Below are positions 39,931 through 61,762 of a stretch of 64,000 nucleotides of DNA, in pieces; positions within the stretch are counted from its first letter, which is position 1, and each line of letters begins with the position of its first letter. A model generated the notes under the pieces. That model was not told the DNA's origin. It saw only the letters and a program-made list of their open reading frames with translations, and ran no database searches. The stretch comes from Candidatus Woesearchaeota archaeon (lineage in GTDB: Archaea; Nanobdellota; Nanobdellia; Woesearchaeales; UBA11576): NCBI GenBank assembly GCA_013203345.1, contig JABMQF010000062.1, forward strand, positions 2,490 to 66,489, written 5' to 3'. Both the position numbers and the translations under genes were made by a program.

Positions 39931-40905
39931 TCAACTCATCACGCCCTGCGCCAGGGTTATGACAAAGAAAGCTACAGTCATCAATATCAATGAGTGCTTT
40001 GCACCTGACTTGAGATCACCCTCTGCAAGCTTTCCAAGTACAAGCCCTGCGAAACACGCCTGTATCATCGCAAGCATCAAGAACACGCCACGGATGGATG
40101 TGAACCAGGCACCTGCTGTGCCAATAAACGCGCCAAGCGAAGAAAAATCAACCTTCACAGGCCGGATTGCGCCTCCGAGCGCAGAAGAAGTCAAGGCCAT
40201 ACCTCCCTCTCCAATACCATCAATATTCTTTGATTCAATATTTGCAATGTAAGGTATAAGCAGGTTCTGAATCACTATCATAACGCCAAGGAACACTATG
40301 AATATTATATAGCTCTGCACGAGCTGGGAGTGGATGCCTGCCTTTCTTGCAAGCTTTATCTTCTTTATCTCTATAACAGACTTGGTAACTGTCTCGAGAA
40401 CATCCTCCATGTTACCTCCTGAAAGCTCAGCTTCTATCACTGTTGATATACTTCTTTTGATCACACCATTATTAGTCTCATTAGCAAATGTTCCCAGCGC
40501 CTTGTGTACAGGGATTGCCCACTCAACCTGATTAGCAAGCTTAACAATATGCGGTGTAAGCGCACCATAATCTGATTTTGCAACATATATAATCGCCTTG
40601 CTAACAGGCATGCCTGACTTGATAGATCCTACAAGATTCCTGACAAATTCAGGGAACATAGACTCGAGCTCCTTCTGCTTTTTGGAAAACATGAAGAAAT
40701 CCAACCAGAACTGCATCCATCCAATGCTTAAAGATATTATCAACAAAGGTATGAACCATGAAGTCTTCCTCAAGAATAATAAGTCCACTGCAAGCAGAGC
40801 TACCCCTAAAATAACGCCGATCAAATGCTTCTTATCAAAATGCCACTCCATCATAACACCATCATATCTCGGGTTGAGTAACCGTAAGGAAAGTAAGGAA
40901 CGCAA
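39931..40905 (-). CDS. type IV pilus/T2SS-F-like inner-membrane platform protein (TadB/TadC-like, second half of split platform)
   Basis: GspF-like cytoplasmic helical domain (SIKSGMPVSKAIIYVAKSDYGALTPHIVKLANQVEWAIPVHKALGTFA) flanked by TM helices. 44-nt overlap with the upstream platform gene. Confidence 0.6.
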   Translation of the reverse strand: MRSLLSLRLLNPRYDGVMMEWHFDKKHLIGVILGVALLAVDLLFLRKTSWFIPLLIISLSIGWMQFWLDFFMFSKKQKELESMFPEFVRNLVGSIKSGMPVSKAIIYVAKSDYGALTPHIVKLANQVEWAIPVHKALGTFANETNNGVIKRSISTVIEAELSGGNMEDVLETVTKSVIEIKKIKLARKAGIHSQLVQSYIIFIVFLGVMIVIQNLLIPYIANIESKNIDGIGEGGMALTSSALGGAIRPVKVDFSSLGAFIGTAGAWFTSIRGVFLMLAMIQACFAGLVLGKLAEGDLKSGAKHSLILMTVAFFVITLAQGVMS

Positions 40906-42808
40906 TATTCATGAACGGTATGACAACATAAGTTCCCATCACAATAATTACATTGACATCCATGCCACCAACCTTACCACCAAGAAGGCTCACAAGTGAC
41001 AAAGCAGCCACGAAGAAAAGCGGAGCCGCTATCAGTATGCCTGTGTAAATATCTGAATAAGTCGCTATAGTTTCTGTATACTGCTGACGCTCAAGCTTGT
41101 AATTAAGCATAGCCTCGTCTGCCTTCTGACTAAAGAACTGCTTCAAATCACCACCTGTCTGTGTTGTTGAAATCATACCTTCAAAAAAATCCTTGAACTC
41201 AAAAGAAGGTGTTGTAGCTGAAACAGCCTTCAATGAAGTAAGGACATCATATCCAAAAACATCTACATAATTAACTATCTTCTCTATTTCAGAAGACACC
41301 TCGCCATACTCAGTAGAGTCTGCGATAAGCCTGAACATTTTTATAGGTGCAACACCAGATGAAGACACTGCCGCCATATGATTTATCGCAAAAGGAAGGT
41401 TTGCGTTTATGCTTGCCCTCCTAGCTTTCATCATTGAATAAGGATAAGCGTAAAAACCTGCGAATATTGCGATACCGAGCAGCAAAGACATCATCAAAGT
41501 TCTGAACAAAACCTGTAATAAGGGTAATGAAGTTGCAGCAAAAAAGAACCCGAAAACAAACAACCCCAAGAACGAACTTGCAATAACACCTAAAACCATC
41601 ATGTTCACATAAGTATTCGAAAGAATCTTTATGTTAGCAAGCCTAATCGCATGATATAAATCCTTGAAAAATTCAGGAAACTGATCAAGAAGATAAAGAC
41701 TTATATGTTTTATACTCATATTAGCAAAAGATCCAAAAAAACTTGGTTGGTATACTTTCAAGGACTTTCTGCTGTCCATTATTGACCTTATCCTTCTAGC
41801 CTCTTTTGTAAATGATGTTGTAGATATCTTCTCTGCTTCAGCAATAACTTTTGGTTTCTCTCTTCTTCTGCGAGCAGCAAGATGGTAAGTTGATATAGGA
41901 CCTTTAGAAGGAATATCACTGAATGTTATCTTTCGTTTCCTATTAATAAGATTCTTGAAATAACCCATGTTGAAACCACTACCTAAAGCAATGGCTTCTT
42001 CAGGTTTGGTAACGGGCTTTGCAACTGGTTTGGTAACTGGCTTTGCAACTGCAACTGGTTTGGCAACATGCTTGGAAACAGGTGCTGCCTTTTTTGCAGA
42101 ACTATGCTTTGAGAATAATCTCTCAAACAAAGATGGTCGAGAAACGTGTACTGGAGAAGGCTTAGCAATAGGTTTAGATGCTGCCTGTCTATCAATAGGC
42201 TTAACCTTAGTCTTCAATTCATCCATAACCCTGTCAAGTTCACGTCTTGTCACCAGCCGCTTCATGAACAACTGCAATCTCTCAAACAATGAAGACTTTA
42301 TCTCAACAAGATGAGGAACAGACTTATCAGGAGCAACAATAAATTGCTTATCTGTTTGAACTGATGCTACGTGAGCAGGTTTTGCAAGGGCAGGTTTTGC
42401 ATGAACGGGCGTTGCAGCATGTTCTGGAATAGGCTTGACAACAGGTTTTACAACAGACTTAACAGCAGACTTAACAGCCGCGAGTGGAGACTGAACTTTC
42501 ACATCAACTATATTCTCAAAATCATTGTTGTTGTAAGCTTCATAGAAAAGCTGTGAATTATATGTCTCTATCTTCTTAAGCAATGAATAAACATAAGAAT
42601 CATAATATTCCATCCAATCCTCTTTTGATCTTCCTTTAAGAATTCTTTTCAATGATTTCTCATAACTAAAATAAGTTAGCGTACCGCTTTGATAGTCTGC
42701 GAACAGGCTGTCAATCCTTCTGATCAGATTCTGCTTATACACTCTGTAAGTCTCAATCTCAGAGATAAGTTCCAGAACCTTATTGACTATCAGCTGAACA
42801 TCCTTCAT
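40862..42808 (-). CDS. FlaJ/TadC-like membrane platform protein with K-P-V/A repeat linker
   Basis: C-terminal ~350 aa with T2SSF-like topology. Residues ~100-280 form a low-complexity A/K/P/V repeat (AKPVAVAKPVTKPVAKPVTKP, SAVKSVVKPVVKP). Confidence 0.65.
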   Translation of the reverse strand: MKDVQLIVNKVLELISEIETYRVYKQNLIRRIDSLFADYQSGTLTYFSYEKSLKRILKGRSKEDWMEYYDSYVYSLLKKIETYNSQLFYEAYNNNDFENIVDVKVQSPLAAVKSAVKSVVKPVVKPIPEHAATPVHAKPALAKPAHVASVQTDKQFIVAPDKSVPHLVEIKSSLFERLQLFMKRLVTRRELDRVMDELKTKVKPIDRQAASKPIAKPSPVHVSRPSLFERLFSKHSSAKKAAPVSKHVAKPVAVAKPVTKPVAKPVTKPEEAIALGSGFNMGYFKNLINRKRKITFSDIPSKGPISTYHLAARRRREKPKVIAEAEKISTTSFTKEARRIRSIMDSRKSLKVYQPSFFGSFANMSIKHISLYLLDQFPEFFKDLYHAIRLANIKILSNTYVNMMVLGVIASSFLGLFVFGFFFAATSLPLLQVLFRTLMMSLLLGIAIFAGFYAYPYSMMKARRASINANLPFAINHMAAVSSSGVAPIKMFRLIADSTEYGEVSSEIEKIVNYVDVFGYDVLTSLKAVSATTPSFEFKDFFEGMISTTQTGGDLKQFFSQKADEAMLNYKLERQQYTETIATYSDIYTGILIAAPLFFVAALSLVSLLGGKVGGMDVNVIIVMGTYVVIPFMNIAFLTFLTVTQPEI

Positions 42809-42832
42809 TTTACTATTGCAATACCCCCAAAA

Positions 42833-43048
42833 TCAAGAGATCTGTTCAAGACCCTCAAGCATGTGCTTGACGTGTAGCGAAAGCTTCAACATACGCTCCT
42901 TTGCGAACTTAGCCTCCTCTTTACGAACAATGATATCCTCATTACTATCAACACCTGCGTTGACAATATCCTCATAAAGCTCATCAAGTGCAGATATCTC
43001 CCTCATACTCTCATCGATGGAAAGCATTCTTTCCCGAAAGCCACTCAT
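42833..43048 (-). CDS. small hypothetical protein (71 aa) between ATPase and platform genes
   Basis: ORF track. 4-nt overlap with the upstream ATPase gene. Confidence 0.4.
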   Translation of the reverse strand: MSGFRERMLSIDESMREISALDELYEDIVNAGVDSNEDIIVRKEEAKFAKERMLKLSLHVKHMLEGLEQIS

Positions 43049-44811
43049 TTCATATCAAACCTCTTTAGAACCGACTCAGGATCCTTATAATAATCATTAA
43101 CTACCTTATTGAATTCCTGGAAAGAAGCAATATTTTTATCAGCCATCTTCTGCAATAAAATTGCACGCTGTTTCATCTCTGCAGTAATCTGCTCCTCAGT
43201 CATACCTGTTCTCTTTGTTATCTGCTCAAATATTGTCGGCTTATTTTTTAATAATATCTTATCGCTAGCAGGATCCAACTCAAAAACAGAATTGTACTTT
43301 GCTTGTCCTAAAGCCTGCTCAACTTCCAAAACCTCATCAACTTCTCTCAAGCGCCTTATGTTACGCTTCTGATCTTTTATATGGATGCAGATGCAGACAA
43401 CATCCAATGCCTCTACAAGAGACGGTGAAAGATTTATAGGAGGAGTCTCCAGCCTCTTCACAACAGTATCAACCGACGCTGCGTGGAATGTCGAGAATGA
43501 AGGATGGCCTGAAGCCATGCCCTGGAACAACACATAAGCCTCTTTGCCTCTGATCTCTCCCACAATAACATAATCAGGATTCTGCCTGAAACTCTCCCTA
43601 AGAAGATCGAAAAGAGTTATCTCACCATACTTTGTGCCCATCACAGTAGGCATTCCAAAACCTGCACGAGTGACCGCAGGAAGCCAATTGATGTGCGCAA
43701 GGTTCAACTCTCTTGTATCCTCAATAGAACATATACGAGCTTCAGGAGGTATAAAATCCACAATACAGTTCAGGAATGTTGTCTTGCCTGAAGCAGTCTC
43801 ACCAACAACCATTATATTGAACTTATTCTCTATAACAAGCCAAAGGTATGCGAAAGCTTCTGCAGTGGCAGTCCCTGACTTTATCAGATGGACAGGAGTC
43901 CAAGGTTCTTTTGTGAACTTCCTTATTGTGAAAGTTGGCCCGCGTGTTGTTATGTCCTCTGTGTAAGTAGCGTTAACTCTTGACCCATCAGGAAGAGTAC
44001 CGTCCAGTAAAGGCTTAGCATAAGATATGTACCTACCAGTCTTCTGCGCTAGCTTCTCTATAAAATCAGTCATGTACTGCTTATCCTTGAAAATAACAGT
44101 GGTCTTCAGGTTCTGATACTTCCTGTGAACTATGTACAATGGAAAATTCAAACCATTGCACTCAATATCCTCAACATAATAATCATTAAGCAAAGGCTCA
44201 ATCTCATTTAGACCGACAGAATTCCTGTAAACATAGTACATCAACTTTTTGTAACTCTTCTTACTAACCTTTGTACCTATCTCAACAAGAATGCTCTGTA
44301 CATTCTTCTCAAGATATTGAATAAGCAAATTAGACTTTGACGCACGAACAAAACTTATATTTATCATTTCCTCAAGGCCAAGATTAATCAGCTCAAGAAG
44401 CTCTTTCTCAGTATCATCAAGTATAGGCTCTTCAACAGAATAGATAAGCTCATTCTGCTCTTTATCCCAGTATAAATGCGCATAAGCATAAGGAGGAATT
44501 AAAGGATAACGCACATTTATTGTTCGCTTCTGATCATAAGGTGGAAGTTTTGTAAGCTTAGGTCTGAGATCTATGTAGAAACCATCATTATACTTGTTCT
44601 CTATTAATACCTCCGACCCTGCCTCTGAGCCTCCCTCTACTCCTTCCTCTTTAGAAGAGGATGAACTCTGCTCAGCATTGACTACAACCTCAGGTCCTTC
44701 AGGTTCAGGTTTAACCTTAATCTCAACACTACCTGTACCAACAGCACCACCTGCTGCCACAACAGGAGCGGTCTTATCTACTTTTTTTTTGAAAAACGGG
44801 AATGCCACCAT
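43045..44811 (-). CDS. FlaI/TadA/VirB11-family type IV pilus assembly ATPase
   Basis: Walker A VVGETASGKTTFLN. Asp box. Walker B and His box (VIVGEIRGKEAYVLFQGMASGH). N-terminal domain with an acidic low-complexity region. Confidence 0.85.
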   Translation of the reverse strand: MVAFPFFKKKVDKTAPVVAAGGAVGTGSVEIKVKPEPEGPEVVVNAEQSSSSSKEEGVEGGSEAGSEVLIENKYNDGFYIDLRPKLTKLPPYDQKRTINVRYPLIPPYAYAHLYWDKEQNELIYSVEEPILDDTEKELLELINLGLEEMINISFVRASKSNLLIQYLEKNVQSILVEIGTKVSKKSYKKLMYYVYRNSVGLNEIEPLLNDYYVEDIECNGLNFPLYIVHRKYQNLKTTVIFKDKQYMTDFIEKLAQKTGRYISYAKPLLDGTLPDGSRVNATYTEDITTRGPTFTIRKFTKEPWTPVHLIKSGTATAEAFAYLWLVIENKFNIMVVGETASGKTTFLNCIVDFIPPEARICSIEDTRELNLAHINWLPAVTRAGFGMPTVMGTKYGEITLFDLLRESFRQNPDYVIVGEIRGKEAYVLFQGMASGHPSFSTFHAASVDTVVKRLETPPINLSPSLVEALDVVCICIHIKDQKRNIRRLREVDEVLEVEQALGQAKYNSVFELDPASDKILLKNKPTIFEQITKRTGMTEEQITAEMKQRAILLQKMADKNIASFQEFNKVVNDYYKDPESVLKRFDMK

Positions 44812-44914
44812 GATTTCTCCATAATATTTTCCATCAATCTAAATTATCATTGATCTCATTAATCTTAATAATCAATAAAGCAAAATCATCAATAAATATA
44901 AATTATCAATAAAC

Positions 44915-45613
44915 CTACCTTATCTTCACCTCGAGGAAATCCCTATTACTCTTGAGCGTGAACTCAACAACAGTGTAATAGCTTTCATCTGTAGTATTAA
45001 CATAATAAACAACGCTTGCAGCTCCAAGACTTGAACCCTCATCCTCAAGCACAGAGAAACCTGAAGCGCTCCAGACTGGAGTGCCAAAATCGAATGTGAA
45101 ATCATCATCCGCAGCATCCTCTCCTCCTGTGTTCGGATCCTTGAAAACAAAATCAACAAGCATACTAGATTGGTTCAATGTGCATGTTTCACGATCCTCG
45201 CAACTGTTGAACACTGCGCGAATGTAAGTATTCTCAAGAGTGTAATTATCTCCCCGCCTCTGAGCAGACACATCAGCATTAGAAGATATGTAGAGATTAC
45301 CAAGCTCAACTTGCTGACCAGACTCAAGTATACGCGCATCTGTGCGCATATCCCACTTAAGTGAACCGTCCTTCAGCTCAAGAAAACCTTTCTCCACCTC
45401 AACAGGCACAACGCGCTGAGAACCAACACCCTCCTCAGAAATCTCAGAAATATGCTGGTTCAGCTGAATGAAAGTATTTTTTGATCTTGTGAACACAGAC
45501 TTGTCCTGTAATTCTCTGAGAATAGGAACACCCGCATTCAGGACGACAACCATAACTACAGTTATCACAAGTATGTAAAGTATTGCTGAAATCCATATCT
45601 GTCCTTTATCCAT
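44915..45613 (-). CDS. pilin-like protein with N-terminal class-III-type hydrophobic segment
   Basis: MDKGQIWISAILYILVITVVMVVVL N-terminus. Located within the pilin gene series. Confidence 0.5.
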   Translation of the reverse strand: MDKGQIWISAILYILVITVVMVVVLNAGVPILRELQDKSVFTRSKNTFIQLNQHISEISEEGVGSQRVVPVEVEKGFLELKDGSLKWDMRTDARILESGQQVELGNLYISSNADVSAQRRGDNYTLENTYIRAVFNSCEDRETCTLNQSSMLVDFVFKDPNTGGEDAADDDFTFDFGTPVWSASGFSVLEDEGSSLGAASVVYYVNTTDESYYTVVEFTLKSNRDFLEVKIR

Positions 45614-46040
45614 TTAATATACCCGGACTATCTTTTTGGAAGCTTATGTTCTTGAAATTTAATCCTCTGCACCCTTTAGGGTACACAATAACATAATCAA
45701 CAACAGCTATATCAACTGTGACAGGCTGCATAGATCTTTGGTCAAGCATAATGACTACATCCTTGACTTCACCTGCGCTCTCAACAACAATTGTCTCTAT
45801 TATCGAGCCAATGGTATTCTTGATGTCAAAGTTCAGAGTCATATTATTATATGAAACACTCGAAGCAGGTATGTCGAAATAGTATCTTCCGCACTCGACT
45901 GCAACCAATGTTTCCCGCGATGAATAAGCTGTCTGCTCAACAACCATACTGTAAACCCATACTGCTGTGAAAAGCACTAGCAGGATGAAAATCACAGCCA
46001 AAAATATGACAAGGCTTATCTTTCTTGACGTTCTATCCAT
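45606..46040 (-). CDS. pilin-like protein
   Basis: MDRTSRKISLVIFLAVIFILLVLFTAV N-terminus. 8-nt overlap with the next gene. Confidence 0.5.
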   Translation of the reverse strand: MDRTSRKISLVIFLAVIFILLVLFTAVWVYSMVVEQTAYSSRETLVAVECGRYYFDIPASSVSYNNMTLNFDIKNTIGSIIETIVVESAGEVKDVVIMLDQRSMQPVTVDIAVVDYVIVYPKGCRGLNFKNISFQKDSPGILNG

Positions 46041-47937: not shown

Positions 47938-50526
47938 TCATTCTATTGTTATTGTGACATTCACCCTTCCATCAGATGTAACACCCTGATGATTAAGGTA
48001 TATATCATATTTGCCTGGCATCAGTTTAATATTACCACCTAAGTAAATATCAGAGTAACGCAGTTCGTTCTGCATAATATTTGACGCGTCCTTGCCGCTG
48101 AAACCAAAACTTGGATTCTCCACATCAAGGAAACTATCATCATCAAGCTCATCATTCACATCATCAAGGTCAAAGCTGCGCGACATGAATATCTTGATTG
48201 TGCTGCCATCTGTTGTGGCAGTTATTCGCCCTGTGTTAATGTCTGCAGGAGCCTCACTCGCAGCACCGACATAACCGTCGCCCTCGGGGACATAGCACAA
48301 TGTGGTGCCATGTACGCCGCAATTGGAATAGCGCACAACAAGATTGCCACCAGCAGTAGGAACAAAGTCACGATTAAGCCTTACAAAAACACTTGATGAA
48401 ATTGAAATAACACCAGAATCAGTCTCAGCGACTGCGTAAATCTCATTATTCCCCTGGAAAAGTGTGGCTGCGCTGAATGTGTATGTTGTGTTGAAAACTT
48501 CTGAAGTAGAAGTGTGATTGCTTCCATCAGAGTGAAGCACGACAATGTAAACAGAGGCGTTGCCTGAAACAACAACCTTTACGCTGATGTTATACTCATC
48601 CGCGGATGATTCAAATGTGTCTCCGTCATTAGGATATGCAATAGCAATGCTGACCCCACCCGCTGCCACAATTATTTCGTAATGCGCTGTCTCTCCCCAG
48701 TTGCCTGCGTTGTCAACAGCCTTGACATGGAAATAATGAGTGCCGTCAGGCAATGAACTGAACATGGTGTCCCATACACTGCCTGAATCCTGCAGAACAA
48801 CTTTGATAGCATAATCCCTTGATGATGAGGTGTCTGTGCATGGGAGGGTAGGGTCGCAGACAAATGAACTTGTGGAGGTGTCAATGTCTGACGCAGAAGA
48901 GGCTATGGTAAGGTTATGGCGGTTGTCATCAGTGCTGATGCCTGCTATCACAACATAAATGTCTGCTGTGCTGTCATCCACTGATTCATTGACTTCTAGA
49001 TTGAACTCATATGTTTCTGCATCAAGCATGCTTTGCGCGTAACTTATGTCAAGATACTCTTCAGCAATATTTGTTACAGGCACACCACCCTGAAATGTTG
49101 TGACTCCAGCACCTTCTACTACACGGACAAGATAAGCCCTAACACCCATAGCATCAGGAAGATCTGAAACAAGCTCTGAAAGTTTGACACTAACAATAAG
49201 AGTGTCATTGATAGTGATGTTAGTGTGAAGCTGAGTTGAAACAGCAAAAGTATTTGGCGACGGTGTGCTGCTATTCGCCCTTAGTAACTGAAACGAACCA
49301 TCATTACTCATACTTGAAAGAATCTCAAGATATCTTGACTCTGCAACACTGTCAGGCGCAGTTCCTGGATACGAGTCAATAGTGTATGAGTAGCCTGCGA
49401 TGCCGCTCCTGTTGCCTGCAGAGAGTATGTCCTCTGCTGTCCAGTTGAATAATGCATCTGAGATGGCGTATGCAGTGCTTTCTATTGGGTGTGATGTACT
49501 AGATACATTAGGAACAGCAGGCGCGGTAAAGTCAGTACGCGCACCGTCTGATAATGACGAAGGCGCTGAAATGTTCCAAGGATTGGAAGCGATGACTTCG
49601 AATACGTACAGTGTGTTCTCCTCAAGTGTGAGACCAGTCACAGTCACCTCTGCATCTCTACCTGTGCTTGTGAAGTTGCAATCATTGTTGTAGCAAGAAT
49701 TATTCTCAATAATCCTATACCTGTAATGTATTTCAGAAATATCCTCAGTCGCGTTGAACCAGTGCGCTGAAAGAGTGCTGTTAGATGAAATCCAGTCAAT
49801 GTCCGAAGCTTCGAGTCCGTCGAATACTACAGGAGCTGTGGGCGGGGTGATGTCCTGAGTGTAATGATACATAATAGATTCATTGTAAACAACAGTGTTG
49901 TCATTCGTATCTCTCACCTCATAATAAACAGTCTTGTTGCCTTCCCCAGGACTGAGAATCCAAGGCTTGAAAATCGTACAATTCTCCCAGGGCGCTGCCG
50001 CGAGATTTGTCAAATTATCATTAGCATAACGACAAGCATCCACTCCAAAATTATCCTCATAAGTAAGTTCAAGCATCACTGAACTCGACGCAGTTATGTT
50101 TGTGAAGTTCTGCCAGCGTATGGCAATCGAACCAGTAGGAGGTGTTCCGTCTGTGACTGTAAGCCGCAAATTAACATTCAATGACGCATTCACGCTATTG
50201 CACCCGTAAACATGCGCGTCCTGCTGTGCGAACACTGCGAACGCACACTCATAACCTGCAGGGACAGAACCTGAAGCACTTGTCTGCATACTCCATACCA
50301 AAGTAGTGTTTGAATTGTTGAGGCAGACACTATCGCTGTAGTAGTTATTGATAGAGACATGCGAGTTGGTGTCGTTGTAAAGCTGGACAAGATTGATTGA
50401 ATTTGTTCCGCAGCCGTCGTCGAGCGTGGTTACGTTTGATTGACACGCAACAGTCCAATCAAAATCAGTTCTATTACCAAACTCAACATGCGAATTATCC
50501 AACTGGTACATGTTGATGATGGGCAC
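47938..50526 (-). CDS. large Ig-like-domain surface protein (adhesin-like), paralog family member 1; N-terminus probably mis-called
   Basis: Shares TPPTAPVVFDG and HYFHVKAVDNAGNWG...HYEIIVAAGGV motifs and the C-terminal ...GRVNVTITIE ending with 55240-57531 and 57528-60719. See the finding on the missing signal peptide. Confidence 0.6.
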   Translation of the reverse strand: MPIINMYQLDNSHVEFGNRTDFDWTVACQSNVTTLDDGCGTNSINLVQLYNDTNSHVSINNYYSDSVCLNNSNTTLVWSMQTSASGSVPAGYECAFAVFAQQDAHVYGCNSVNASLNVNLRLTVTDGTPPTGSIAIRWQNFTNITASSSVMLELTYEDNFGVDACRYANDNLTNLAAAPWENCTIFKPWILSPGEGNKTVYYEVRDTNDNTVVYNESIMYHYTQDITPPTAPVVFDGLEASDIDWISSNSTLSAHWFNATEDISEIHYRYRIIENNSCYNNDCNFTSTGRDAEVTVTGLTLEENTLYVFEVIASNPWNISAPSSLSDGARTDFTAPAVPNVSSTSHPIESTAYAISDALFNWTAEDILSAGNRSGIAGYSYTIDSYPGTAPDSVAESRYLEILSSMSNDGSFQLLRANSSTPSPNTFAVSTQLHTNITINDTLIVSVKLSELVSDLPDAMGVRAYLVRVVEGAGVTTFQGGVPVTNIAEEYLDISYAQSMLDAETYEFNLEVNESVDDSTADIYVVIAGISTDDNRHNLTIASSASDIDTSTSSFVCDPTLPCTDTSSSRDYAIKVVLQDSGSVWDTMFSSLPDGTHYFHVKAVDNAGNWGETAHYEIIVAAGGVSIAIAYPNDGDTFESSADEYNISVKVVVSGNASVYIVVLHSDGSNHTSTSEVFNTTYTFSAATLFQGNNEIYAVAETDSGVISISSSVFVRLNRDFVPTAGGNLVVRYSNCGVHGTTLCYVPEGDGYVGAASEAPADINTGRITATTDGSTIKIFMSRSFDLDDVNDELDDDSFLDVENPSFGFSGKDASNIMQNELRYSDIYLGGNIKLMPGKYDIYLNHQGVTSDGRVNVTITIE

Positions 50527-50780
50527 AAATCCAGGATCAACTGAAAGACGCGGAAAGATTGTGCAATTTAAGTTGCCTGCTGCGGATGCTATGGGGGCTG
50601 CGAGGGCGATGCATAAGATGATGAAAGCAGGGGCTATTAGGAAGAATGGTGCTATGGTCCATGTTACACGCGTTCTTTTGATGTGGTCACCTAACCTTAT
50701 TCATAAATGTGGCCATAGTGTTGGCCACCTTTATCTTTATGTGGTCAAAATACTGGTTAATTTCATGATTAGTGGTTTGT

Positions 50781-51383
50781 TTAAATAGTCTTTTTGGCAC
50801 TTTCAACCACCTTGATTAACTGATCGTAACCAAACAGGACAATACCTCTTCTCAGTATGCTCAGGACAACTTTATCCATTGATTTGATATTGACCTTCAG
50901 GTCGTCTTTTGTCTGCTTCACTGCATGAATCCTCTTCACACTGAGTCCGCTTATCTCTTTGAGTAGGCTGTTTATCTTCTTGTTCTGGTTATGCTTGAAG
51001 ACCAAAAGCACGTCCACATCACTGAATTCCTTGTGCGACAGGACAGAACCGAACAAGATCCCTATATCCGCAGCGTCCTTAAACTTCCTCAATTCCTTAA
51101 CCCAGCGCTTTACTCTTGGTGTCGAGTGCTCTGCCTCTTTCTGTAGGATGAACCTCAGGTATGTCCTCGTGTAGTCATTGGAAAAATCCATTCTGTAGAA
51201 GACAGCCCGTCCCATCTGCCTTGATTTCAGTATGCCCTGCTTTTCCAGCCTTTTCAGTATCTTCAATGTTCCCATGGGCGTCAAGCCCAATCTCTTACTG
51301 AGGTTGTTGGCATTGTAATCTGTACTGAAATCCTTGAACAAGGTCAGCACAGCATTCATCTCGTTCATTGTCACAGTTTCCAT
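50781..51383 (-). CDS. winged-HTH (MarR/ArsR-like) + minimal nucleotidyltransferase fusion
   Basis: N-terminal NNLSKRLGLTPMGTLKILKRLEKQGILKS wHTH. C-terminal AADIGILFGSVLSHKEFSDVDVLLVF NTase signature. Confidence 0.7.
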   Translation of the reverse strand: METVTMNEMNAVLTLFKDFSTDYNANNLSKRLGLTPMGTLKILKRLEKQGILKSRQMGRAVFYRMDFSNDYTRTYLRFILQKEAEHSTPRVKRWVKELRKFKDAADIGILFGSVLSHKEFSDVDVLLVFKHNQNKKINSLLKEISGLSVKRIHAVKQTKDDLKVNIKSMDKVVLSILRRGIVLFGYDQLIKVVESAKKTI

Positions 51384-51560
51384 CTAAACCACCAGTTTAT
51401 ATATATAAACTTTTAGTTTATATATGTTTTGGAGGGGATTGTTGTTCAATATGCTAGGAAAGGAGCACCTAGAGAGGATAGCAGGGGCTAACAAAACAAA
51501 AAGTGCAATGTCCTTGATTGGATTGTTATTCATTTTGTTTGTTTGAATTTTTTGGTCATT

Positions 51561-55239: not shown

Positions 55240-57531
55240 TCATTCTATTGAAAGCGTTATGTTCTGGGCACCAAACAATGTGTGACCACCTTTTCTTATG
55301 TACAATTTATGAACGCCTGGCGATACCCTGAAGTCACCGTCAAGACGTATATCAAGATAACGCAATTCTGTTCTCAACAAATAAGAGGAAATACCTCTTT
55401 CAAATCCAAACATAGGATTCACAACATCCAGGAATGTGTTCTCGGCAAGCTCTGATGCAACAGAACCTGTGTCAAAAGGCCGCGTCATGTAAAGTTTGAT
55501 AGTATTTAATGATGTATCGGCCTGTAGTGAAGGCTCAGATATCGAACCAAGATCTTCAGTAGCGAGACCTACATAAGATGTTGTCTCATCAGCATTGCAG
55601 ATGTATGGCAGAGCTGTTGCAGAACAACCAGGATACCGCACCCTCAATGTCTTGTTCATGAAAGGCTGTTCACCTGGCGCAACAGTTATGAAAACTCCTG
55701 GACTGCGAGCCATAGCACCATTAGAATTGTTAGTCAATGCATATATCTCGTCCTGACCGAGCTCAACAGTTATGTTCTCAAATGAAGCTGTGCCTTCGAA
55801 AACCTGCGGAAGGGAGACAGAGCTGCTTCCATCAGCATGCTCTGCCACGACCCTAACAGTCGCGTTGCTGCTCACAGACACCAGGACTGTTATGTTTTTC
55901 TCAAAACCATCAGTGATAAAGACCTCTCCGTTAAGCGGAGATACAACCATAGACTCGACTCCACCAGCAGCAACAATTATCCTATAATGATTAGGATCGC
56001 CCCAATTGCCTGCCATATCCTTTGCCTTGACGTGGAAATAATATATTCCATCAGCAAGAAGATCATACACAGCTGTCCAGTCATTCCTTGCGGATCTTCT
56101 CTTAACCTCAATTGAATAATCAAGTGATGTTGTGTTCTCAACACAAGAGTTAGACTCATCACATACAAAACAACGAGTGGTGTTATCTACATCTGTAGCT
56201 GTGCGAGCTATCGCAAGAGGATTACGGTTATCATCATCGTCAGTCATTGCTGCGACTACAACATAAAGGTCGTCGACATCTTCATTTAAAGACTCATTCA
56301 CCACGAGCTCGAAAGAATAGATGCGCGCAAGACCCATTGTCTCTGCATAACGCACATCGAACTCTTCTGAATATATATTTGACACTGCACTGCCTGTAAG
56401 GTTGAACAGGGATACTAGCGTGCCACCAGTGTTCCTTGCAAGATATACCCTAACACCCGAAAGGTCAGAGTAATCACTAAATTGCTCAGCAAGAGCCACC
56501 CTGACAAGAACAGTGTCATTTACAGAAATATTAAAATGAAGCTGACTGAACACAGAATACGCAAGTCCTGTTCCATTGTTCTTCAATGTCTGATTATCAT
56601 TTCCTTTGCGCAAACGCTCAAGACGCTCCCATCCTCTTGTGTCAATATAATTATCAGGTGATGTGCCGGGTACTGAATCCAAGATGTAAGAATATCCGTC
56701 TATACCTGACATCATTCCTGCGCTGAGGATGTCATCTGCGCTGAAATTGAAAAGAGCATAAGATATATCATAAGGAAGAGATTGTGATGGGTGCGATGTG
56801 CTTGTAACATTAGGCGCGCCAGGTCTTGTCAGATCTATAAAGACTCCGTCGGATGATGTGACTGATGAATTGAAACCCGAAGGGTTGTATGCCATCACCT
56901 CAAAAGAATAATTATTTCCCTCATCAAGCGCAATGCCTGTGATGTCTACGCTTGTCGCTGTGTTTGCATCTATCCAGACGCATGAGCCAAAGCAAGAACC
57001 ATTCTCAAGTACACGATACTTATAATATAATGTGGATATATCCTCTGTTGCGTTGCGCCATGATGCTGCGAGGGTCGTGTTGCTGTTCCACCAATCAATA
57101 TCCTCAGTACCCCTTCCGTCGATGACTATTGGCGGCAGAGGTTTTGTGTAATCCTGAACAAATCTGTACTCAATAGAATCATTGAAACTAGACGTATGAC
57201 CTGCAAGGTCTCTCAATCCAAAGAAGACAGTCTTATTTCCATATCCCTCACTAAGTATCCAGGCCTTCACAGTTGTGCAAGGCTCCCAAAGAGCTGAATC
57301 AAGATTTGAAGCGACGTCATTAGCCCACCGACAGAAATCAATACCATCAGAAGAACTGTAAGATAGATTGAGCAGAACATTCCTTGTTCCTGTCACTGTT
57401 GTTCCATTCGGACCATATATGGTGATGTATCCTGAAGGTATGTCCGCAGCAACGATGTTCACCAACAACAGCAGTAAAGCTACCATCAGGATACTCGTTC
57501 CAAACAACCTCCTGATTCTTTCCGATATCAT
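55240..57531 (-). CDS. large Ig-like-domain surface protein, paralog 2
   Basis: Signal peptide SILMVALLLLLVNIVAA. Shared motifs TKPLPPIVIDG, HVKAKDMAGNWGDPNHYRIIVAAGGV. C-terminal ...NITLSIE. Confidence 0.6.
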   Translation of the reverse strand: MISERIRRLFGTSILMVALLLLLVNIVAADIPSGYITIYGPNGTTVTGTRNVLLNLSYSSSDGIDFCRWANDVASNLDSALWEPCTTVKAWILSEGYGNKTVFFGLRDLAGHTSSFNDSIEYRFVQDYTKPLPPIVIDGRGTEDIDWWNSNTTLAASWRNATEDISTLYYKYRVLENGSCFGSCVWIDANTATSVDITGIALDEGNNYSFEVMAYNPSGFNSSVTSSDGVFIDLTRPGAPNVTSTSHPSQSLPYDISYALFNFSADDILSAGMMSGIDGYSYILDSVPGTSPDNYIDTRGWERLERLRKGNDNQTLKNNGTGLAYSVFSQLHFNISVNDTVLVRVALAEQFSDYSDLSGVRVYLARNTGGTLVSLFNLTGSAVSNIYSEEFDVRYAETMGLARIYSFELVVNESLNEDVDDLYVVVAAMTDDDDNRNPLAIARTATDVDNTTRCFVCDESNSCVENTTSLDYSIEVKRRSARNDWTAVYDLLADGIYYFHVKAKDMAGNWGDPNHYRIIVAAGGVESMVVSPLNGEVFITDGFEKNITVLVSVSSNATVRVVAEHADGSSSVSLPQVFEGTASFENITVELGQDEIYALTNNSNGAMARSPGVFITVAPGEQPFMNKTLRVRYPGCSATALPYICNADETTSYVGLATEDLGSISEPSLQADTSLNTIKLYMTRPFDTGSVASELAENTFLDVVNPMFGFERGISSYLLRTELRYLDIRLDGDFRVSPGVHKLYIRKGGHTLFGAQNITLSIE

Positions 57532-60500
57532 GATAATGACCTCACACTGATATTAACCCGCCCGTCAGCAGTGAACCCTGTGTTTCTGAAAACAAGAGAG
57601 TACGCTCCTGCGCTGAACCTCTTATCACCCTCGAGATATATGTTAGCAGGCCTCAACTCTGTTCGTATTATGTAATACGCAACACCTCTTTCAATACCAA
57701 AAGCAGGATTCACCCTGTCAAGGAAATCATCATCATCAAGATCATCCTCAACACCTGACTGGTCCATCAAATCAGTAGTGGCGAAAAGCTTTATCGTAAC
57801 AATACTTGTATCCGACTCTATTGATCCTGTATTAAAAGCCGCTGCATTGTTCTCTGTTGCTATACCTACGACAATATCCCCTTCATCCACTCCTCGGATA
57901 TGATTTGTCAGTATACCCGCATTACCATAAGAAACCCTAATGGTCTTGTTTGACTCAGGCAGACCTACCCCCATACGAACAAAAACAGACTGTGAATAAG
58001 AGATAACATCATTAGCAGGATTTACCGCTGTCGCGTATATCTCATTTGTCCCATTATCAAGAACAACATCAAACGTTCCGTCTCCATTGAAAAGCTGCAA
58101 GGCAGATGTGGATAAATCACCATCCTCATTCACAACAGTAACTGAGACATTGGCCAGCTGATCAACATCAACAACCACAGGTATGTTGGGGCTATTGAAC
58201 AACTGTCCTGTGAACGGAGAGGTTATTCTCGCCGAGACAGCGGCGGTGTCTATGACAATATTGTAATGTGACGGGTCGCCCCAGTTTCCTGCCATATCCT
58301 TTGCCTTTACATGGAAGTAATGATTGCCGTCTGGGAGATCAAAATCAACATCCCACACATCACCTGAATCCATATGCCTGGCCTCGACAGAATACTCAAC
58401 TGAATATGTATTCTCAACACATGCGCCAACCTCATCGCAGACAAAACTCGCTGTTGTATTGTCAACAAACGCCAAAGTATCAGTACCTCCAACATCAAGA
58501 GGATTGCGATTGTCATCATCAGAAGGCATACCTGCTACAACAACATAAACATCCGCGAATGAATCGTCAATGGATTCGTTGACTGTCACGTCGAACTGAT
58601 AGATGCGCGACAAAGACATATCATACGAATAAACAAAGTCTCTTGATACATCAATAATATCAGACACAGCATTAGCTGTGATGTCAAAGCCTGATATTGG
58701 CATACCTTCTCCAGTTGTTGCCAGATAGATGCGGAGCGACATCAAATCTGTCAGGTCTGAATCACGCTCTGCAACGACGACACGAATGCGCACTGTGTCA
58801 TTGACAGACAAGTTAGTGTGCACCTGACTGAATACAGCATATGCAGAACCTCCCATATCATCCCTGATAGTTGTGTTGTAAGTTCCTCTAATCATAGGCC
58901 TTACAACCTGCCAGTCCCTTGCTTCAACATTATCATCAGGAGCACTGCCAGGATACATACCTACCATATATGAATAACCATCAATACCTGAAATCAAGTC
59001 TTGCGCAGTGAAGTTAAGCAGCACATCACTACTTCCGTAAGAAGTACCTTCTATTGGATGAGTCAAGCTAGTTATGTCGGGCGCTGTCGGAGGGGTCAGA
59101 TCAATGATAACACCGTCGGACGAAGAGGTTGCGTTAAAACCTCCCTCTATGTAAGCTGTGACCTCAAAAGTATAGTTGCTTCCCTCATCAAGAGATAGAT
59201 TAGGGACAGTGACGTCTGTTCGTTCACCCACATCAGTCCAGTCACACCCGCCAAAGCATGAACCGTCCTCAAAAATCCTGTACTTGTAATATATATTTGA
59301 AATATCATCTGTCGCGTTCCACCAGTAAGCTGAAAGGGTTGTGTTGCTGTTGACCCAGTCAATGTCAATACCTGTATCACCGTCATATACAACTGGCGCT
59401 GTCGGCGGAGTATAATCCTGAGTGAACCTGTAAGTTATGGATGTGTTCATCACCGTAGTCTGGGGCTTGCAATCCCTCAACTCGTAGAAGACAGTCTTGT
59501 TGCCTTCTTCTTCTGACAAAATCCAGGCCTTTACACCTACACAAGATTCCCAAGACATGCTGCCGAGATTGGACGCGTTGTCATTCGCCCAGCGGCATGC
59601 AGGCAAGCAGAAATCATCTGCATAAGTCAAGTTAAGGAAAACCATCCTTGACCCTGTGAATACTGTGCTTCCATTCGGACCTACAATATCTATAGATCCT
59701 GTCGGAGGATAATCAATCATCGGACCGTTGTCAGATACTGATCCTACAACATTTCCACCAGTCGCAGCAGAATAAGGATAAGCTGTTCCAGAATCACCAT
59801 ATCCATCTATGTTTGAGTCGACGATGTCCAAAGAACCTATATCATCCCATAGGTTTCCACGCTGACATAGAGCACCACATGCTGAACCATTATCAACACT
59901 CCATAGGTTGAGTGCGGATTGGTCATTTGCAAGACCTAGCGTCGCGCTTCTGAATTGATTGAAGTAAAAAGTGTTACCTGACGAGGGATTTGCAAGGAAC
60001 ACATGATAACTAGTGCTGTTTTCGAATGTGCTGTTTTTGACGATGTTGTCATTGCTGTTAAGGGTGAATTGGATCCCCCAGTCATTATCCTCGAAAAGTA
60101 CATTTTCAATCAGACTGTCACTTGAACCCTGCAAATAGATACCCGTATCTCCGTTGTTGTATATATCTGAATCTTCTATCACAGTGTCGGTGGCAGTTAA
60201 TATATTGAATCCATTCCCTGTGTTTGAATAAGAACGGATAAGCGAAAAGTTTGACTGAATAGAATTTTGGTAATCAAACCCTTGTTTTACATTATTGCGG
60301 GAAGTCAGGTTATGGAATGAACAGAAATCACCCTCAAGAGAGAAACCTGTGCTGTAATTAACAGCTTCACATCCTGAAATATTTACCTGGTGCTGATTAA
60401 CAGAATAGAAACCACTACCAGTATCGTCACCTATTATTATTGTGTTGTTGCATGTAAGTGAAACAGATCCTGCAGTTATCCTGACAACACCATCACCTGC

Positions 60501-60719
60501 TGTGTCGACTATGTTGAAAGTTCCTGAACATAGCGTCGTGTCTGAAGATATATCAAGATTATCAGACGGGTTGACACACTGCGCAGAAGCGAATGATGCG
60601 AAAATTGCTGTTAATACTACACATAACAGAATCATCATTAATTTTCTCGTCCCTGCAGTTCTTGTCCATGCAGAGCACTTATTGAATAGCATCATCTTGC
60701 CACCTGCACCTCCAACCAT
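57528..60719 (-). CDS. large surface protein, paralog 3, with N-terminal pectate-lyase-like beta-helix repeats
   Basis: Signal peptide. Beta-helix-type repeats (NNGDTGIYLQGSSDSLIENVLFEDNDWGIQFTLNSNDNIVKNSTFENS). Then the shared Ig-like region (TPPTAPVVYDG, HVKAKDMAGNWGDPSHYNIVI). Confidence 0.6.
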   Translation of the reverse strand: MVGGAGGKMMLFNKCSAWTRTAGTRKLMMILLCVVLTAIFASFASAQCVNPSDNLDISSDTTLCSGTFNIVDTAGDGVVRITAGSVSLTCNNTIIIGDDTGSGFYSVNQHQVNISGCEAVNYSTGFSLEGDFCSFHNLTSRNNVKQGFDYQNSIQSNFSLIRSYSNTGNGFNILTATDTVIEDSDIYNNGDTGIYLQGSSDSLIENVLFEDNDWGIQFTLNSNDNIVKNSTFENSTSYHVFLANPSSGNTFYFNQFRSATLGLANDQSALNLWSVDNGSACGALCQRGNLWDDIGSLDIVDSNIDGYGDSGTAYPYSAATGGNVVGSVSDNGPMIDYPPTGSIDIVGPNGSTVFTGSRMVFLNLTYADDFCLPACRWANDNASNLGSMSWESCVGVKAWILSEEEGNKTVFYELRDCKPQTTVMNTSITYRFTQDYTPPTAPVVYDGDTGIDIDWVNSNTTLSAYWWNATDDISNIYYKYRIFEDGSCFGGCDWTDVGERTDVTVPNLSLDEGSNYTFEVTAYIEGGFNATSSSDGVIIDLTPPTAPDITSLTHPIEGTSYGSSDVLLNFTAQDLISGIDGYSYMVGMYPGSAPDDNVEARDWQVVRPMIRGTYNTTIRDDMGGSAYAVFSQVHTNLSVNDTVRIRVVVAERDSDLTDLMSLRIYLATTGEGMPISGFDITANAVSDIIDVSRDFVYSYDMSLSRIYQFDVTVNESIDDSFADVYVVVAGMPSDDDNRNPLDVGGTDTLAFVDNTTASFVCDEVGACVENTYSVEYSVEARHMDSGDVWDVDFDLPDGNHYFHVKAKDMAGNWGDPSHYNIVIDTAAVSARITSPFTGQLFNSPNIPVVVDVDQLANVSVTVVNEDGDLSTSALQLFNGDGTFDVVLDNGTNEIYATAVNPANDVISYSQSVFVRMGVGLPESNKTIRVSYGNAGILTNHIRGVDEGDIVVGIATENNAAAFNTGSIESDTSIVTIKLFATTDLMDQSGVEDDLDDDDFLDRVNPAFGIERGVAYYIIRTELRPANIYLEGDKRFSAGAYSLVFRNTGFTADGRVNISVRSLS

Positions 60720-61762
60720 TTCCTGAACACAGGGTCATTGATCTCAAACATACCTCTTGATTTAAGGGTAAGAAAACCTTTTTCCTCCATTATCGAGAGG
60801 AATCGTCTTACGTTTGTCCGTGAATAATCGATTATGCGCGATATCCTCGACGGAGTGTTAACATCATGCTCTGCCATGCAGACAATTATGGGCAGCTCTT
60901 TTGGGCTAAGCTGCCTTAGTCTCTCTGAATAGTAAGTGTGCAGCTCATTTTTGATAGCATCCTTTGCAAGTAAGTTGATTGCCTCGGCTGTTGCCGCAGA
61001 TGAAAGCTTTGCAAGCCTTGCAATATAGTTTATGTAGAAAGGAACACCACCTGAAAAATTATAAATCGCATTAAGTGCTGCCTCTTTTATCTCTACATTG
61101 TTTGACGATATGTATTCACGTGCATAAGATATTGGCATCAGAGGAATATTGACTGAATCTATATCCGCAACCTTGTAATGTGATGCAAATACAAAGACAC
61201 ACTCTCCTGACTGGCCTGCATATTCGAATAGAGCAGACATCGATGCATGTTGTGACTTCATTCCAGCAAGACGGTCTGCATCGTCGACAAGAATCACAGG
61301 CACTGTGTTGGTCTCAGTTGCTATCTTAGATGGCAATGATATGAAAACATTTACAACATCATCAATAGAAATTGTTTTGTCTTGCTTGTGAAACAGTAAA
61401 ATCTTGATGTCCCTGCGCAGGCCATCACTAATCTTCAGTTCTGAAAGTTTGCTGTCTATGTCAAGAATTGACGCAGATAAGATCTTTTCATATTCAATGA
61501 ATACATCTTTGTAAGCCTGAAGCAATGAGATGAGATTTGTGCGAATATATGATTCAAGACCTGTGCATTCTGCAGAGAATATGATTGGCATATTAGGTTT
61601 CTTAAGCGAGTTTGCAATATCAAGAAGGAAAGATGATTTACCATATTTGTCTGGCGCGACAACAATCTGGTTTTTGCCTGCCTTTATTGTCTGGAGCGCA
61701 GAATCCAGCTCTTGCTGCCAGTATCGTCGCTGCATCAACATAGGTTGTAGGCTTAACACCAA
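60692..61762 (-). CDS. AAA+ ATPase of the archaeal-ATPase (DUF234-like) family with C-terminal winged helix
   Basis: Walker A VVAPDKYGKSSFL. Walker B ILVDDADRL. C-terminal RRFLSIMEEKGFLTLKSRGMFEINDPVFRKWL wHTH. Confidence 0.65.
   Translation of the reverse strand: MVLSLQPMLMQRRYWQQELDSALQTIKAGKNQIVVAPDKYGKSSFLLDIANSLKKPNMPIIFSAECTGLESYIRTNLISLLQAYKDVFIEYEKILSASILDIDSKLSELKISDGLRRDIKILLFHKQDKTISIDDVVNVFISLPSKIATETNTVPVILVDDADRLAGMKSQHASMSALFEYAGQSGECVFVFASHYKVADIDSVNIPLMPISYAREYISSNNVEIKEAALNAIYNFSGGVPFYINYIARLAKLSSAATAEAINLLAKDAIKNELHTYYSERLRQLSPKELPIIVCMAEHDVNTPSRISRIIDYSRTNVRRFLSIMEEKGFLTLKSRGMFEINDPVFRKWLEVQVAR

Follow-up and report, generated by a model that had tools for sequence, protein, structure and literature searches.

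We investigated a cluster of genes for an archaeal type IV pilus (T4P), giant exported adhesins and a phage-type fibre in a metagenome-assembled genome (MAG) of a Candidatus Woesearchaeota archaeon, a member of the DPANN archaea. The analyzed 64,000-nt stretch of contig JABMQF010000062.1 is referred to as the window, and the features of the cluster are compiled in Table 1. An unbroken run of minus-strand genes from 39931 to 61762 had been proposed in the initial annotation, and all 16 of its open reading frames (ORFs) were recovered at the same positions and on the same strand. One additional ORF of 71 amino acids (aa), which is also called in a separate JGI assembly of this sequence, raises the total to 17. 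The cluster has a GC content of 43% and a coding fraction of 0.98, and its genes mostly overlap or are separated by at most 24 bp. Larger gaps comprise 103 bp (44812-44914), 177 bp (51384-51560) and 254 bp (50527-50780), the last of which shrinks to 98 bp if the third adhesin gene begins at the ATC codon at 50682.

Domain searches reproduced the previously listed domain content (T2SSE, two T2SSF, NosD/Beta_helix, HTH_24 with Polbeta, and a weak ATPase_2 with a winged helix-turn-helix [wHTH]). These family matches and the relatives of the proteins confirm an archaeal T4P locus in a DPANN genome. Proteins identical to those of the window are deposited under Candidatus Woesearchaeota archaeon, and ATPase relatives with 60-66% identity come from MAGs labelled Woesearchaeota or Nanoarchaeota; the closest one (85%) is located on a 251-kb MAG contig. 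The remaining genes of the window encode ordinary cellular functions, namely, MFS transporters, radical-SAM enzymes, a Na+/H+ exchanger and a kinase, and no RNA genes were revealed when the entire window was scanned for tRNAs and Rfam families.

Table 1. Features of the pilus and adhesin cluster, ordered by position in the window. A slash marks the cleavage position within an N-terminal signal.
Feature	Coordinates	Strand	Characteristics
T-rich region 3' of the last gene	39844..39930	-	three T runs (5-6 T each); the last transcription unit probably ends here
Platform protein 2, 324 aa from TTG start	39931..40905	-	Pfam T2SSF 8e-16; NCBIfam FlaJ positions 285-440 of 555
Platform protein 1, 648 aa	40862..42808	-	Pfam T2SSF 1e-15; NCBIfam FlaJ positions 4-248 of 555
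Acidic cytoplasmic ORF, 71 aa	42833..43048	-	overlaps the ATPase stop codon by 4 bp; 54% identity in locus L002
Pilus assembly ATPase, FlaI/GspE type, 588 aa	43045..44811	-	T2SSE, PilB3_C, NCBIfam FlaI, PDB 2oap
AT-rich spacer 5' of the ATPase gene	44812..44914	-	103 bp, 19% GC
Pilin-like protein, 232 aa	44915..45613	-	class-III signal MDKG/QIWISAILY
Pilin-like protein, 144 aa	45606..46040	-	N-terminal transmembrane segment; non-canonical signal SRK/ISLV
Archaeal type IV pilin, 183 aa	46057..46608	-	SRKA/VSPLIATVLL; TIGR02537 28.2 bits (cut-off 20 bits)
Membrane protein with two transmembrane segments, 95 aa	46610..46897	-	best conserved small gene, 53-84% identity
Archaeal type IV pilin, 156 aa	46916..47386	-	RKA/VSPWISWVLL; Pfam Pilin_N 0.0039; NCBIfam UpsA 4e-5
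Pilin-like protein, 180 aa	47391..47933	-	class-III-like N-terminus NRKS/QFYILTAIML
Adhesin paralog 3, pilus-proximal class, ~914 aa	47938..50682	-	apparent start at ATC 50682-50680; ORF caller: 862 aa from GTG 50526
Palindrome GTGGCCAACACTATGGCCAC	50709..50728		between the nucleotidyltransferase stop codon and the ribosome-binding site of adhesin 3
wHTH + minimal nucleotidyltransferase (MNT-type), 200 aa	50781..51383	-	Pfam HTH_24 + Polbeta/NTP_transf_2; PADLOC PDC-M05A
Remnant ORF, 49 codons (MNNNPIKDIALFVLLAPAILSRCSFPSIL...)	51384..51533	-	resembles an adhesin 5' end (signal peptide + C-x-FP motif); runs into the nucleotidyltransferase promoter
Perfect palindrome GTTTATATATATAAAC, 16 bp	51395..51410	-	overlaps a TATA-like box, within a conserved stretch of ~75 nt
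Phage-tail-fibre-like protein, 1225 aa	51561..55238	-	signal peptide, eight VGIGT-type repeats, 115-aa internal duplication, ~190-aa C-terminal module, decoration-protein-like fold
Adhesin paralog 2, 763 aa	55240..57531	-	Sec signal peptide, string of FN3/Ig-like beta-sandwich domains, 25 N-x-S/T sequons (matched protein P0021)
Adhesin paralog 1, 1063 aa	57528..60719	-	Sec signal peptide, NosD-like beta-helix N-terminal module, shared ~730-aa FN3/Ig core (matched protein P0056)
P-loop ATPase (ATPase_2, 'archaeal ATPase') + C-terminal wHTH, 356 aa	60692..61762	-	Pfam, Walker motifs
AT-rich divergent intergenic region	61763..62456		694 bp, 24.5% GC

The pilus ATPase is most similar to GspE of Archaeoglobus fulgidus, its nearest solved homolog (374 bits, 1e-110, full length), followed by FlaI (270 bits, 2.5e-79) and CpaF of the Tad system (142 bits). 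It shows Pfam matches to T2SSE (7.8e-33) and, at residues 522-586, to PilB3_C (27.2 bits; cut-off 27 bits), and its N-terminus carries a low-complexity extension of 85 aa. The score of 402 bits against the NCBIfam FlaI model lies below the equivalog cut-off of 550 bits, and the protein is therefore not an archaellum motor. The ATPase orthologs of two related MAGs contain in-frame insertions of 1.3-1.5 kb at two different sites (locus L007, 5029-6552; locus L008, 1067-2389) that begin with Ser, harbor a LAGLIDADG-like LLGY(Y/F)(V/I)(A/S)EG motif and end with HN followed by Ser. In sequence they look like inteins; the window ATPase has no such insertion.

The two adjacent platform genes each contain a single T2SSF domain and match the N-half and the C-half of FlaJ, respectively, which upholds the previously described split TadC/TadB-type platform. 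Judged from these matches, the platform is one FlaJ/TadC protein divided into two genes, and this arrangement is kept in all related loci. In platform protein 1 the T2SSF domain is preceded by a long cytoplasmic region rich in Pro, Ala and Lys; residues 1-390 comprise coiled-coil-like segments and low-complexity repeats of the KPVAKPVTKP type, and the length of the orthologs varies widely from 648 to 970 aa. The true start of platform protein 2 is likely ATG M18 at 40854.

The pilin set had been described as six pilin or pilin-like genes, a count that holds for five of them. Two products of 183 and 156 aa with an RKAVSP N-terminus are clear pilins, those of 232 aa (KG/Q) and 180 aa (KS/Q) are class-III-like, and the 144-aa protein has a non-canonical signal; the 95-aa product is a membrane protein and not a pilin. 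Its alternative reading as a Flp-type pilin from an internal Met (MNKS/LILYF...) was rejected given that the N-terminal 28 residues are kept in most orthologs. The 144-, 180- and 232-aa proteins have no match in Pfam and NCBIfam. A six-frame scan for class-III motifs revealed no short Flp/Epd-type pilin (50-80 aa) in the window, and none of the 55 window ORFs scanned with Pfam matches a prepilin peptidase (Peptidase_A24: PibD/FlaK/EppA). The peptidase may be encoded elsewhere in the genome; a location of its gene apart from the pilus locus is common in archaea. The spacer between the 232-aa gene and the ATPase gene contains three TTTATTGAT repeats 17 bp apart (44871-44913, minus strand). It is possibly an internal promoter or operator of the ATPase gene, and its length is not conserved (13-123 bp in other loci).

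The three giant adhesins are indeed paralogous, as had been proposed, with identities of 48% over 735 aa and 42% over 768 aa, and no further paralogs are present elsewhere in the window. For adhesin 1, the NCBI call is a 1055-aa protein starting at M9. All three have Sec-type rather than class III signal peptides, lack a C-terminal transmembrane segment and contain 25-30 N-x-S/T sequons each. An AlphaFold2 model of the 763-aa paralog, based on a 34-sequence alignment, represents an all-beta chain of sandwich domains with a mean predicted local distance difference test (pLDDT) score of 81. Foldseek comparison of this model retrieved arrays of fibronectin type III (FN3) and immunoglobulin-like (Ig) domains (E=1e-12 to 1e-8), including the extender region of a bacterial 'large adhesion protein', and no enzyme fold was matched. 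The adhesin family is small and confined to Woesearchaeota and Nanoarchaeota: a word-indexed search yielded 45 matches in three recurring size classes. Every adhesin ends with a common C-terminal module of ~140 aa. A HMMER search with the last 143 aa against 1.84 billion cluster representatives returned only 44 matches, with host proteins reaching 6626 aa; the module is located 0-4 residues from the protein end in all of them except for one weak match (14 residues). The combination of a strictly terminal, family-specific module with highly variable N-termini would fit a putative anchoring or docking element.

The pilus-proximal adhesin, initially annotated as a protein of 862 aa, appears to comprise ~914 aa with a signal peptide and without a canonical start codon. 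Its reading frame is open upstream of the GTG at 50526, the upstream part encodes a good signal peptide (...KRTRVTWTIAPFFLIAPAFIILCIALAAPIASA/AGN), and no ATG, GTG or TTG is present upstream of this GTG in frame. Initiation at the GTG, which is located downstream of the cleavage site, would drop the signal peptide. A Shine-Dalgarno (SD)-like AGGTGA (50692-50687) precedes the ATC at 50682 by 4 nt, and the succession of an SD motif, 4-6 nt and ATC recurs in the related loci, namely, in the 869-aa gene of L002/L010, the 1785-aa gene of L010, the 1844-aa gene of L017 and L019 (positions: L002, ~3154-3180; L010, ~4551-4580; L017, ~9186-9215; L019, ~3600-3625). The aligned start position is occupied by ATA in L013 (~9699-9720) and L014, by ATG in L012 and by TTG in L021. 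Adhesin genes with an N-terminal 'AQSN.NC' module lack ATG, GTG and TTG ahead of the signal peptide and have a strong SD motif (GGAGGT, GAGGTGA or AGGTGA) ahead of ATC or ATA. Only two of the 14 cluster representatives of the pilus-proximal class show a normal called start with a charged n-region; the called N-termini of the other 12 lie inside or after the signal peptide or run through a translated SD-ATC ('RGEHI'). The ~760-aa adhesin class starts with ATG throughout.

The pilus-proximal class thus appears, from these alignments, to initiate at ATC or ATA 4-6 nt downstream of the SD motif. A +1 frameshift or termination-reinitiation is a possible alternative: in four cases a tiny ATG ORF in the -1 frame (MNKVR, MKKR, MRR or MKDQN, each up to its stop) terminates in or near the SD motif. 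Direct initiation at AUC or AUA is favored by the length of the n-region, which matches that of homologs with an ATG or TTG start; L017, with its different relation of the frames, is likewise consistent with it. It is a speculation that a weak start suits a protein needed in few copies per filament.

The conservation of the cluster was determined by tblastn of all window proteins against fetched loci, which had been retrieved via the ATPase, the adhesins and a metagenome scan (designated L0xx; matched proteins are designated P0xxx). The core order of adhesin, 180-aa gene, 156-aa pilin, 95-aa gene, 183-aa pilin, 144-aa gene, 232-aa gene, ATPase, TadC1 and TadC2 is kept in 11 other contigs (L002/L010, L003, L004, L012, L013, L017, L018, L019, L022, L025, L026), and the 180-aa gene is always located immediately 3' of an adhesin gene in other loci. 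The association of the adhesins and the fibre with the pilus genes is conserved across related genomes, which agrees with the comparative-genomics check proposed with the initial annotation. A fuller order of beta-helix adhesin, ~760-aa adhesin, fibre and ~870-aa adhesin is found in about five contigs, among them L013, L012, L010 and L017. One example is L013, with a 1071-aa beta-helix adhesin, a 756-aa adhesin, a 1391-aa Peptidase_S74 fibre and an 867-aa adhesin upstream of the pilin genes. The corresponding region of L012 encodes a 6626-aa beta-helix giant, proteins of 765 and 319 aa, a 1019-aa YadA_head protein and a 909-aa protein, and that of L010 an AAA_14/DUF4143 ATPase, an 879-aa protein, a nucleotidyltransferase, proteins of 1785 and 1208 aa, a 998-aa S74 fibre and an 869-aa protein. 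More distant loci harbor a single adhesin of 2033-2925 aa in place of three. The machinery genes are most conserved (identity to the nearest relative: ATPase 85%, TadC2 80%, 95-aa protein 84%) and the surface proteins diverge fastest (pilins 65-71%, adhesins 47-56%, fibre replaced by a non-orthologous one).

The adjacency of adhesin and pilin genes could also be explained if the giants were general envelope proteins of the S-layer or sheath type that are merely co-located or co-regulated with the pilus and anchored to the membrane or the S-layer by their C-terminal module. S-layer-like proteins are frequent neighbours of euryarchaeal T4P loci (Makarova et al., PMC4858521), some locus-encoded adhesin-like proteins resemble S-layer proteins (10.64898/2026.04.22.720090), and the Sec signals, the heavy sequon content and the Ig-like arrays are typical of archaeal envelope proteins. 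However, three diverging paralogs with rampant shuffling of N-terminal modules and sizes reaching 6626 aa are more in line with variable adhesins than with a lattice-forming S-layer protein. The small family of 44 representatives is moreover located beside the pilin set in the 11 contigs that are long enough to show it, and an apparently weak AUC start would be unexpected for an abundant envelope protein. We therefore regard this explanation as rather unlikely.

It is less probable still that the pilus mainly serves DNA uptake or, like a bindosome, protein secretion, with adhesins that are independent of it. Such a function could be read from the matches of the ATPase to the bindosome BasE model (227 bits) and to TadA-family conjugation-associated ATPases of NCBIfam, and the literature ties the T4P of ultra-small prokaryotes to DNA uptake besides adhesion. 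Yet the FlaI and GspE matches score far higher, neither of these scores reaches an equivalog cut-off, the cluster encodes neither competence genes nor substrate-binding proteins with class III signals, and the conserved adjacency to the adhesins argues for a shared role.

The gene between adhesins 2 and 3 encodes a fibre whose eight (R/N)VGIGT-type motifs agree with its previous designation as a tail-fibre-repeat protein; its repeats and its C-terminal module are phage-fibre-like. The internal duplication has an identity of 64%, and the repeat matches PHROG 5906 (2.6e-13). Peptidase_S74 is absent from the window fibre, which has no Pfam match at E<0.1, no NCBIfam match and no match in a PDB sequence search. 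Among its few sequence homologs is a Woesearchaeota 'tail fiber domain-containing protein' (P0003) with Peptidase_S74 (PF13884). The last ~190 residues of the window fibre share 41-57% identity with short secreted proteins, some of them in bacterial contexts, and recur in 224 stretches of IMG/VR viral contigs (29-52% identity); one of the viral carriers matches PHROG tail-fibre families (3e-11). The structural model of this module (pLDDT >90 for residues 80-229) corresponds to viral tail and tail-fibre structures of BFVD (E=6e-15 to 4e-6) and weakly to solved phage capsid decoration or cement proteins (E ~2e-3, target-normalised TM-score 0.47-0.56). Decoration proteins of such a fold are trimers, which would suit a fibre. 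Stand-alone versions of the module occur in ~320-aa secreted proteins from bacterial-looking contexts (L054, 10001-10957; L056, 10001-10969), one near genes for a sigma-54 activator and glutamate synthase and the other near bacterial MshEN/T2SSE/T2SSF pilus genes.

The VGIGT-type repeats are shared with phage tail fibres and tailspikes that carry a C-terminal S74 chaperone, a domain also present in P0003 and in syntenic fibre genes. The window copy differs by having, instead of S74, another ~190-aa module common in phage fibres, a Sec signal peptide and a location in a cellular pilus cluster. The syntenic gene in this position encodes Peptidase_S74 in L010 and L013 and YadA_head in L012, and the slot therefore holds exchangeable fibres, which are probably trimeric.

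Another conspicuous gene between fibre and adhesin 3 encodes a wHTH fused to an MNT-type nucleotidyltransferase, whose presence within the cluster had been left unexplained. It scores just below the Pfam cut-offs (Polbeta 24.5 versus 26.9 bits, NTP_transf_2 19.3 versus 21 bits), shows the motif FGS-x8-DVD and matches the PADLOC candidate family PDC-M05A over its full length (1.8e-11); M9 at 51359 is probably its conserved start. The wHTH and the putative Polbeta-type nucleotidyltransferase domain with a GS...DVD motif are shared with HEPN/MNT modules and PDC-M05A. The window gene differs from them by its position between duplicated adhesin 5' ends and by the absence of an adjacent HEPN gene: neither its 177-bp flank nor the one of 98-254 bp contains a suitable ORF, and the same holds for L010. 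An ortholog (68% identity) is present in L010 only, in a different slot that is also located between a fibre-like gene and an adhesin gene, and the gene is missing from most syntenic loci. Around its start, a stretch of ~75 nt that extends from the upstream region into the gene is ~90% identical between the window and L010, and the flanks do not align. In the window, a T-tract 3' of the fibre stop codon lies ahead of the nucleotidyltransferase promoter. In L010, copies of a 41-nt direct repeat (40 of 41 positions identical; 3800-3842 and 4625-4665) are located on both sides of the gene and code for the last part of an adhesin signal peptide followed by AQSNMNCDMY; in the window, the gene is preceded by the degenerate 49-codon remnant of this kind. 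This organization suggests an autonomous, probably self-regulated cassette that may have entered an adhesin 5' end by insertion or have been moved along when such ends recombined. Three more MNT-type genes are located in the window (5732-6316, plus strand; 6763-7299 and 24676-25512, minus strand), with two NUDIX genes nearby (4858-5322 and 6317-6733); the family is expanded in this genome.

The cassette also bears on the transcription of the cluster, which had been interpreted as a single mega-operon. The latter is unlikely because the nucleotidyltransferase, absent from most syntenic loci, has its own conserved promoter with TATA-like box and palindrome after the T-tract, and we infer several transcription units from these sequence features. 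Archaeal TATA-like and T-tract features were judged by eye; scans for sigma-70 promoters (54 sites versus 45.6 expected) and terminators (14 versus 10.7 expected) were uninformative.

If the fibre and the cassette are taken together, the upstream half with AAA ATPase, fibre, nucleotidyltransferase and adhesins might be thought of as an integrated virus or mobile island beside a pilus operon. The fibre module and repeats are common in phages, and the nucleotidyltransferase, which has repeats on either side of its gene, resembles a candidate defence family. Nevertheless, the region contains no capsid, terminase, portal, integrase or tRNA gene, its GC content is like that of the rest of the window, and the fibre carries a Sec signal peptide. 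The order of fibre and adhesin genes relative to the pilin genes is moreover kept in several distinct genomes. We rejected this extremely improbable scenario given the lack of virion and integrase genes and the conserved order.

The first gene of the cluster encodes a P-loop ATPase with a C-terminal wHTH (AAA-wHTH), the second component for which no explanation had been at hand. It displays Walker A (GKS) and Walker B (VDDAD) motifs, its match to ATPase_2 (PF01637; 1.2e-4) reaches 22.4 bits versus a cut-off of 33.2, and a MarR/IclR-type HTH is sub-threshold. Orthologs are located in L021 (48% identity) and L022 (30%), on the same strand and 2-4 bp before the first giant gene; the L022 protein exceeds the ATPase_2 cut-off with 35.4 bits and has a sub-threshold HTH_5 match. 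Comparison of the three loci, including the window, thus points to a conserved head gene of the cluster, and the simplest reading of its position and domain content would be that of a dedicated regulator. The ~700-bp AT-rich leader ahead of it was confirmed; with plus-strand genes starting at 62457, it represents a divergent intergenic region. At least 462 bp with 21.6% GC are located upstream of the ortholog in L022. The divergent ORF at 62457-62708 (83 aa, plus strand) has a sub-threshold winged-helix match (Pfam MCM_C, E=0.008). It is followed by a gene that continues past the window end (62695-64000, plus strand); its Cys-rich product of >435 aa is N-terminally anchored, contains an acidic linker, has no family match and may be another surface protein.

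Two types of archaeal pili are relevant for the classification of the locus. System 2/clade 2 loci encode extended ATPases, membrane accessories and large adhesin-like proteins (PMC4858521; 10.64898/2026.04.22.720090), and Archaeoglobus is treated under system 2 (10.64898/2026.04.22.720090). With the euryarchaeal pili of this type (PilB3-PilC3 of Haloferax volcanii and the GspE locus of A. fulgidus) the present locus shares an ATPase nearest to GspE with a PilB3_C tail and N- and C-terminal extensions, several pilins of the Pilin_N type, accessory membrane proteins and large adhesin-like proteins. It differs by its two-gene platform, the adhesin family restricted to Woesearchaeota and Nanoarchaeota, the phage-type fibre and the AAA-wHTH head gene. 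A single platform gene is typical of system 2 (10.64898/2026.04.22.720090), and two tadC genes have been reported for many clade-2 loci (Makarova 2016, PMC4858521). Two platform genes also characterize the Epd-like system 1/clade 1 and some DPANN loci (PMC4858521; 10.64898/2026.04.22.720090). Clade 1 was described as limited to methanococci, methanobacteria and thermococci (Makarova 2016, PMC4858521), and system 1 has been reported in some DPANN (10.64898/2026.04.22.720090).

The two single-T2SSF platform genes are a trait in common with the Epd pilus of Methanococcus maripaludis (system 1; EpdJ/K) and with bacterial Tad/Flp pili (TadB/TadC). The locus differs from both by an ATPase that is far from CpaF and by the absence of a short Flp/Epd pilin and an EppA/TadV peptidase from the window and of a secretin and other Tad accessory genes. 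The term "Tad-like", which had been applied to the pilus, accordingly holds as an analogy only. Judged by its gene content, the present locus is a mixture of system 1 and system 2 traits.

A further parallel exists in bacterial type IVa pili, where the Sec-exported non-pilin adhesin PilY1 is encoded among the minor pilins. The logic of a large Sec-exported non-pilin adhesin gene beside a minor-pilin set is shared with PilY1 and its minor-pilin tip complex. The adhesins investigated here exhibit no similarity to PilY1 in sequence or fold, with FN3/Ig arrays instead of a beta-propeller and vWA domain.

We consider it moderately probable that the locus represents a lineage-specific surface-attachment cluster of Woesearchaeales, in which an archaeal type IV pilus is joined by exported giant adhesins and a phage-derived fibre. 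The pilin-like set would prime a pilus that is assembled by the ATPase and the platform. The adhesins would be exported via Sec, glycosylated and held at the surface via their shared C-terminal module, and their most economical site would be the minor-pilin complex at the pilus tip, following the logic of PilY1. Their variable N-terminal modules and the tip of the presumably trimeric fibre would touch a partner cell or substrate. The AAA-wHTH protein would act as a dedicated regulator, and the pilus-proximal adhesin would be translated from a weak AUC codon and thereby be limited to few copies.

Several observations weigh against this scenario. A physical coupling of adhesins and pilus is something that we infer from the genes, and the case for pilus attachment consists only of synteny and the shared C-terminal module, the last ~60 residues of which are modelled poorly (pLDDT <50). 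The Sec-type signals document that the adhesins are not pilins. The junction between the adhesin and the 180-aa gene measures 4 bp in the window and is tight in L012, but it extends to 264 bp in L010, where a different ATPase (AAA_14/DUF4143) occupies the head position. Apart from the two Pilin_N proteins no obvious major pilin is encoded in the window, and neither is a prepilin peptidase. Finally, the episymbiotic lifestyle of this uncultured organism is assumed by analogy with other DPANN archaea.

An unlikely elaboration of the surface-attachment scenario is a modular 'grappling' organelle. The adhesins and the fibre, taken over from phage receptor-binding proteins, would dock on the minor-pilin complex via a family-specific C-terminal module, the N-terminal host-binding modules would be swapped by recombination between the 5' ends of the paralogs, and the copy number of the tip adhesin would be set by the conserved AUC/AUA start or by recoding at the SD-embedded stop codon. 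If true, DPANN archaea would possess a previously undescribed means of varying their host-recognition proteins and of metering their amount.

Two tadC genes, adhesins and S-layer-like proteins have already been reported for archaeal T4P loci (PMC4858521; 10.64898/2026.04.22.720090), and the gain of the current analysis lies in the specifics and not in a new principle. Our literature searches retrieved no description of the three-class adhesin family with its terminal module, the phage-fibre slot, the AAA-wHTH head gene, the nucleotidyltransferase cassette or the non-canonical adhesin start. To our knowledge, it is largely unknown how DPANN archaea recognize and hold their partner cells, and Woesearchaeota have no cultured representative. 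The cluster provides a concrete and conserved set of candidates, namely, the pilus machinery, an adhesin family that is small, restricted to the lineage and diagnosed by its C-terminal module, and a fibre slot in which phage-type receptor-binding modules are exchanged. The C-terminal module, the AAA-wHTH head gene and the apparent AUC start are testable in existing metatranscriptomes and metaproteomes or in heterologous systems.

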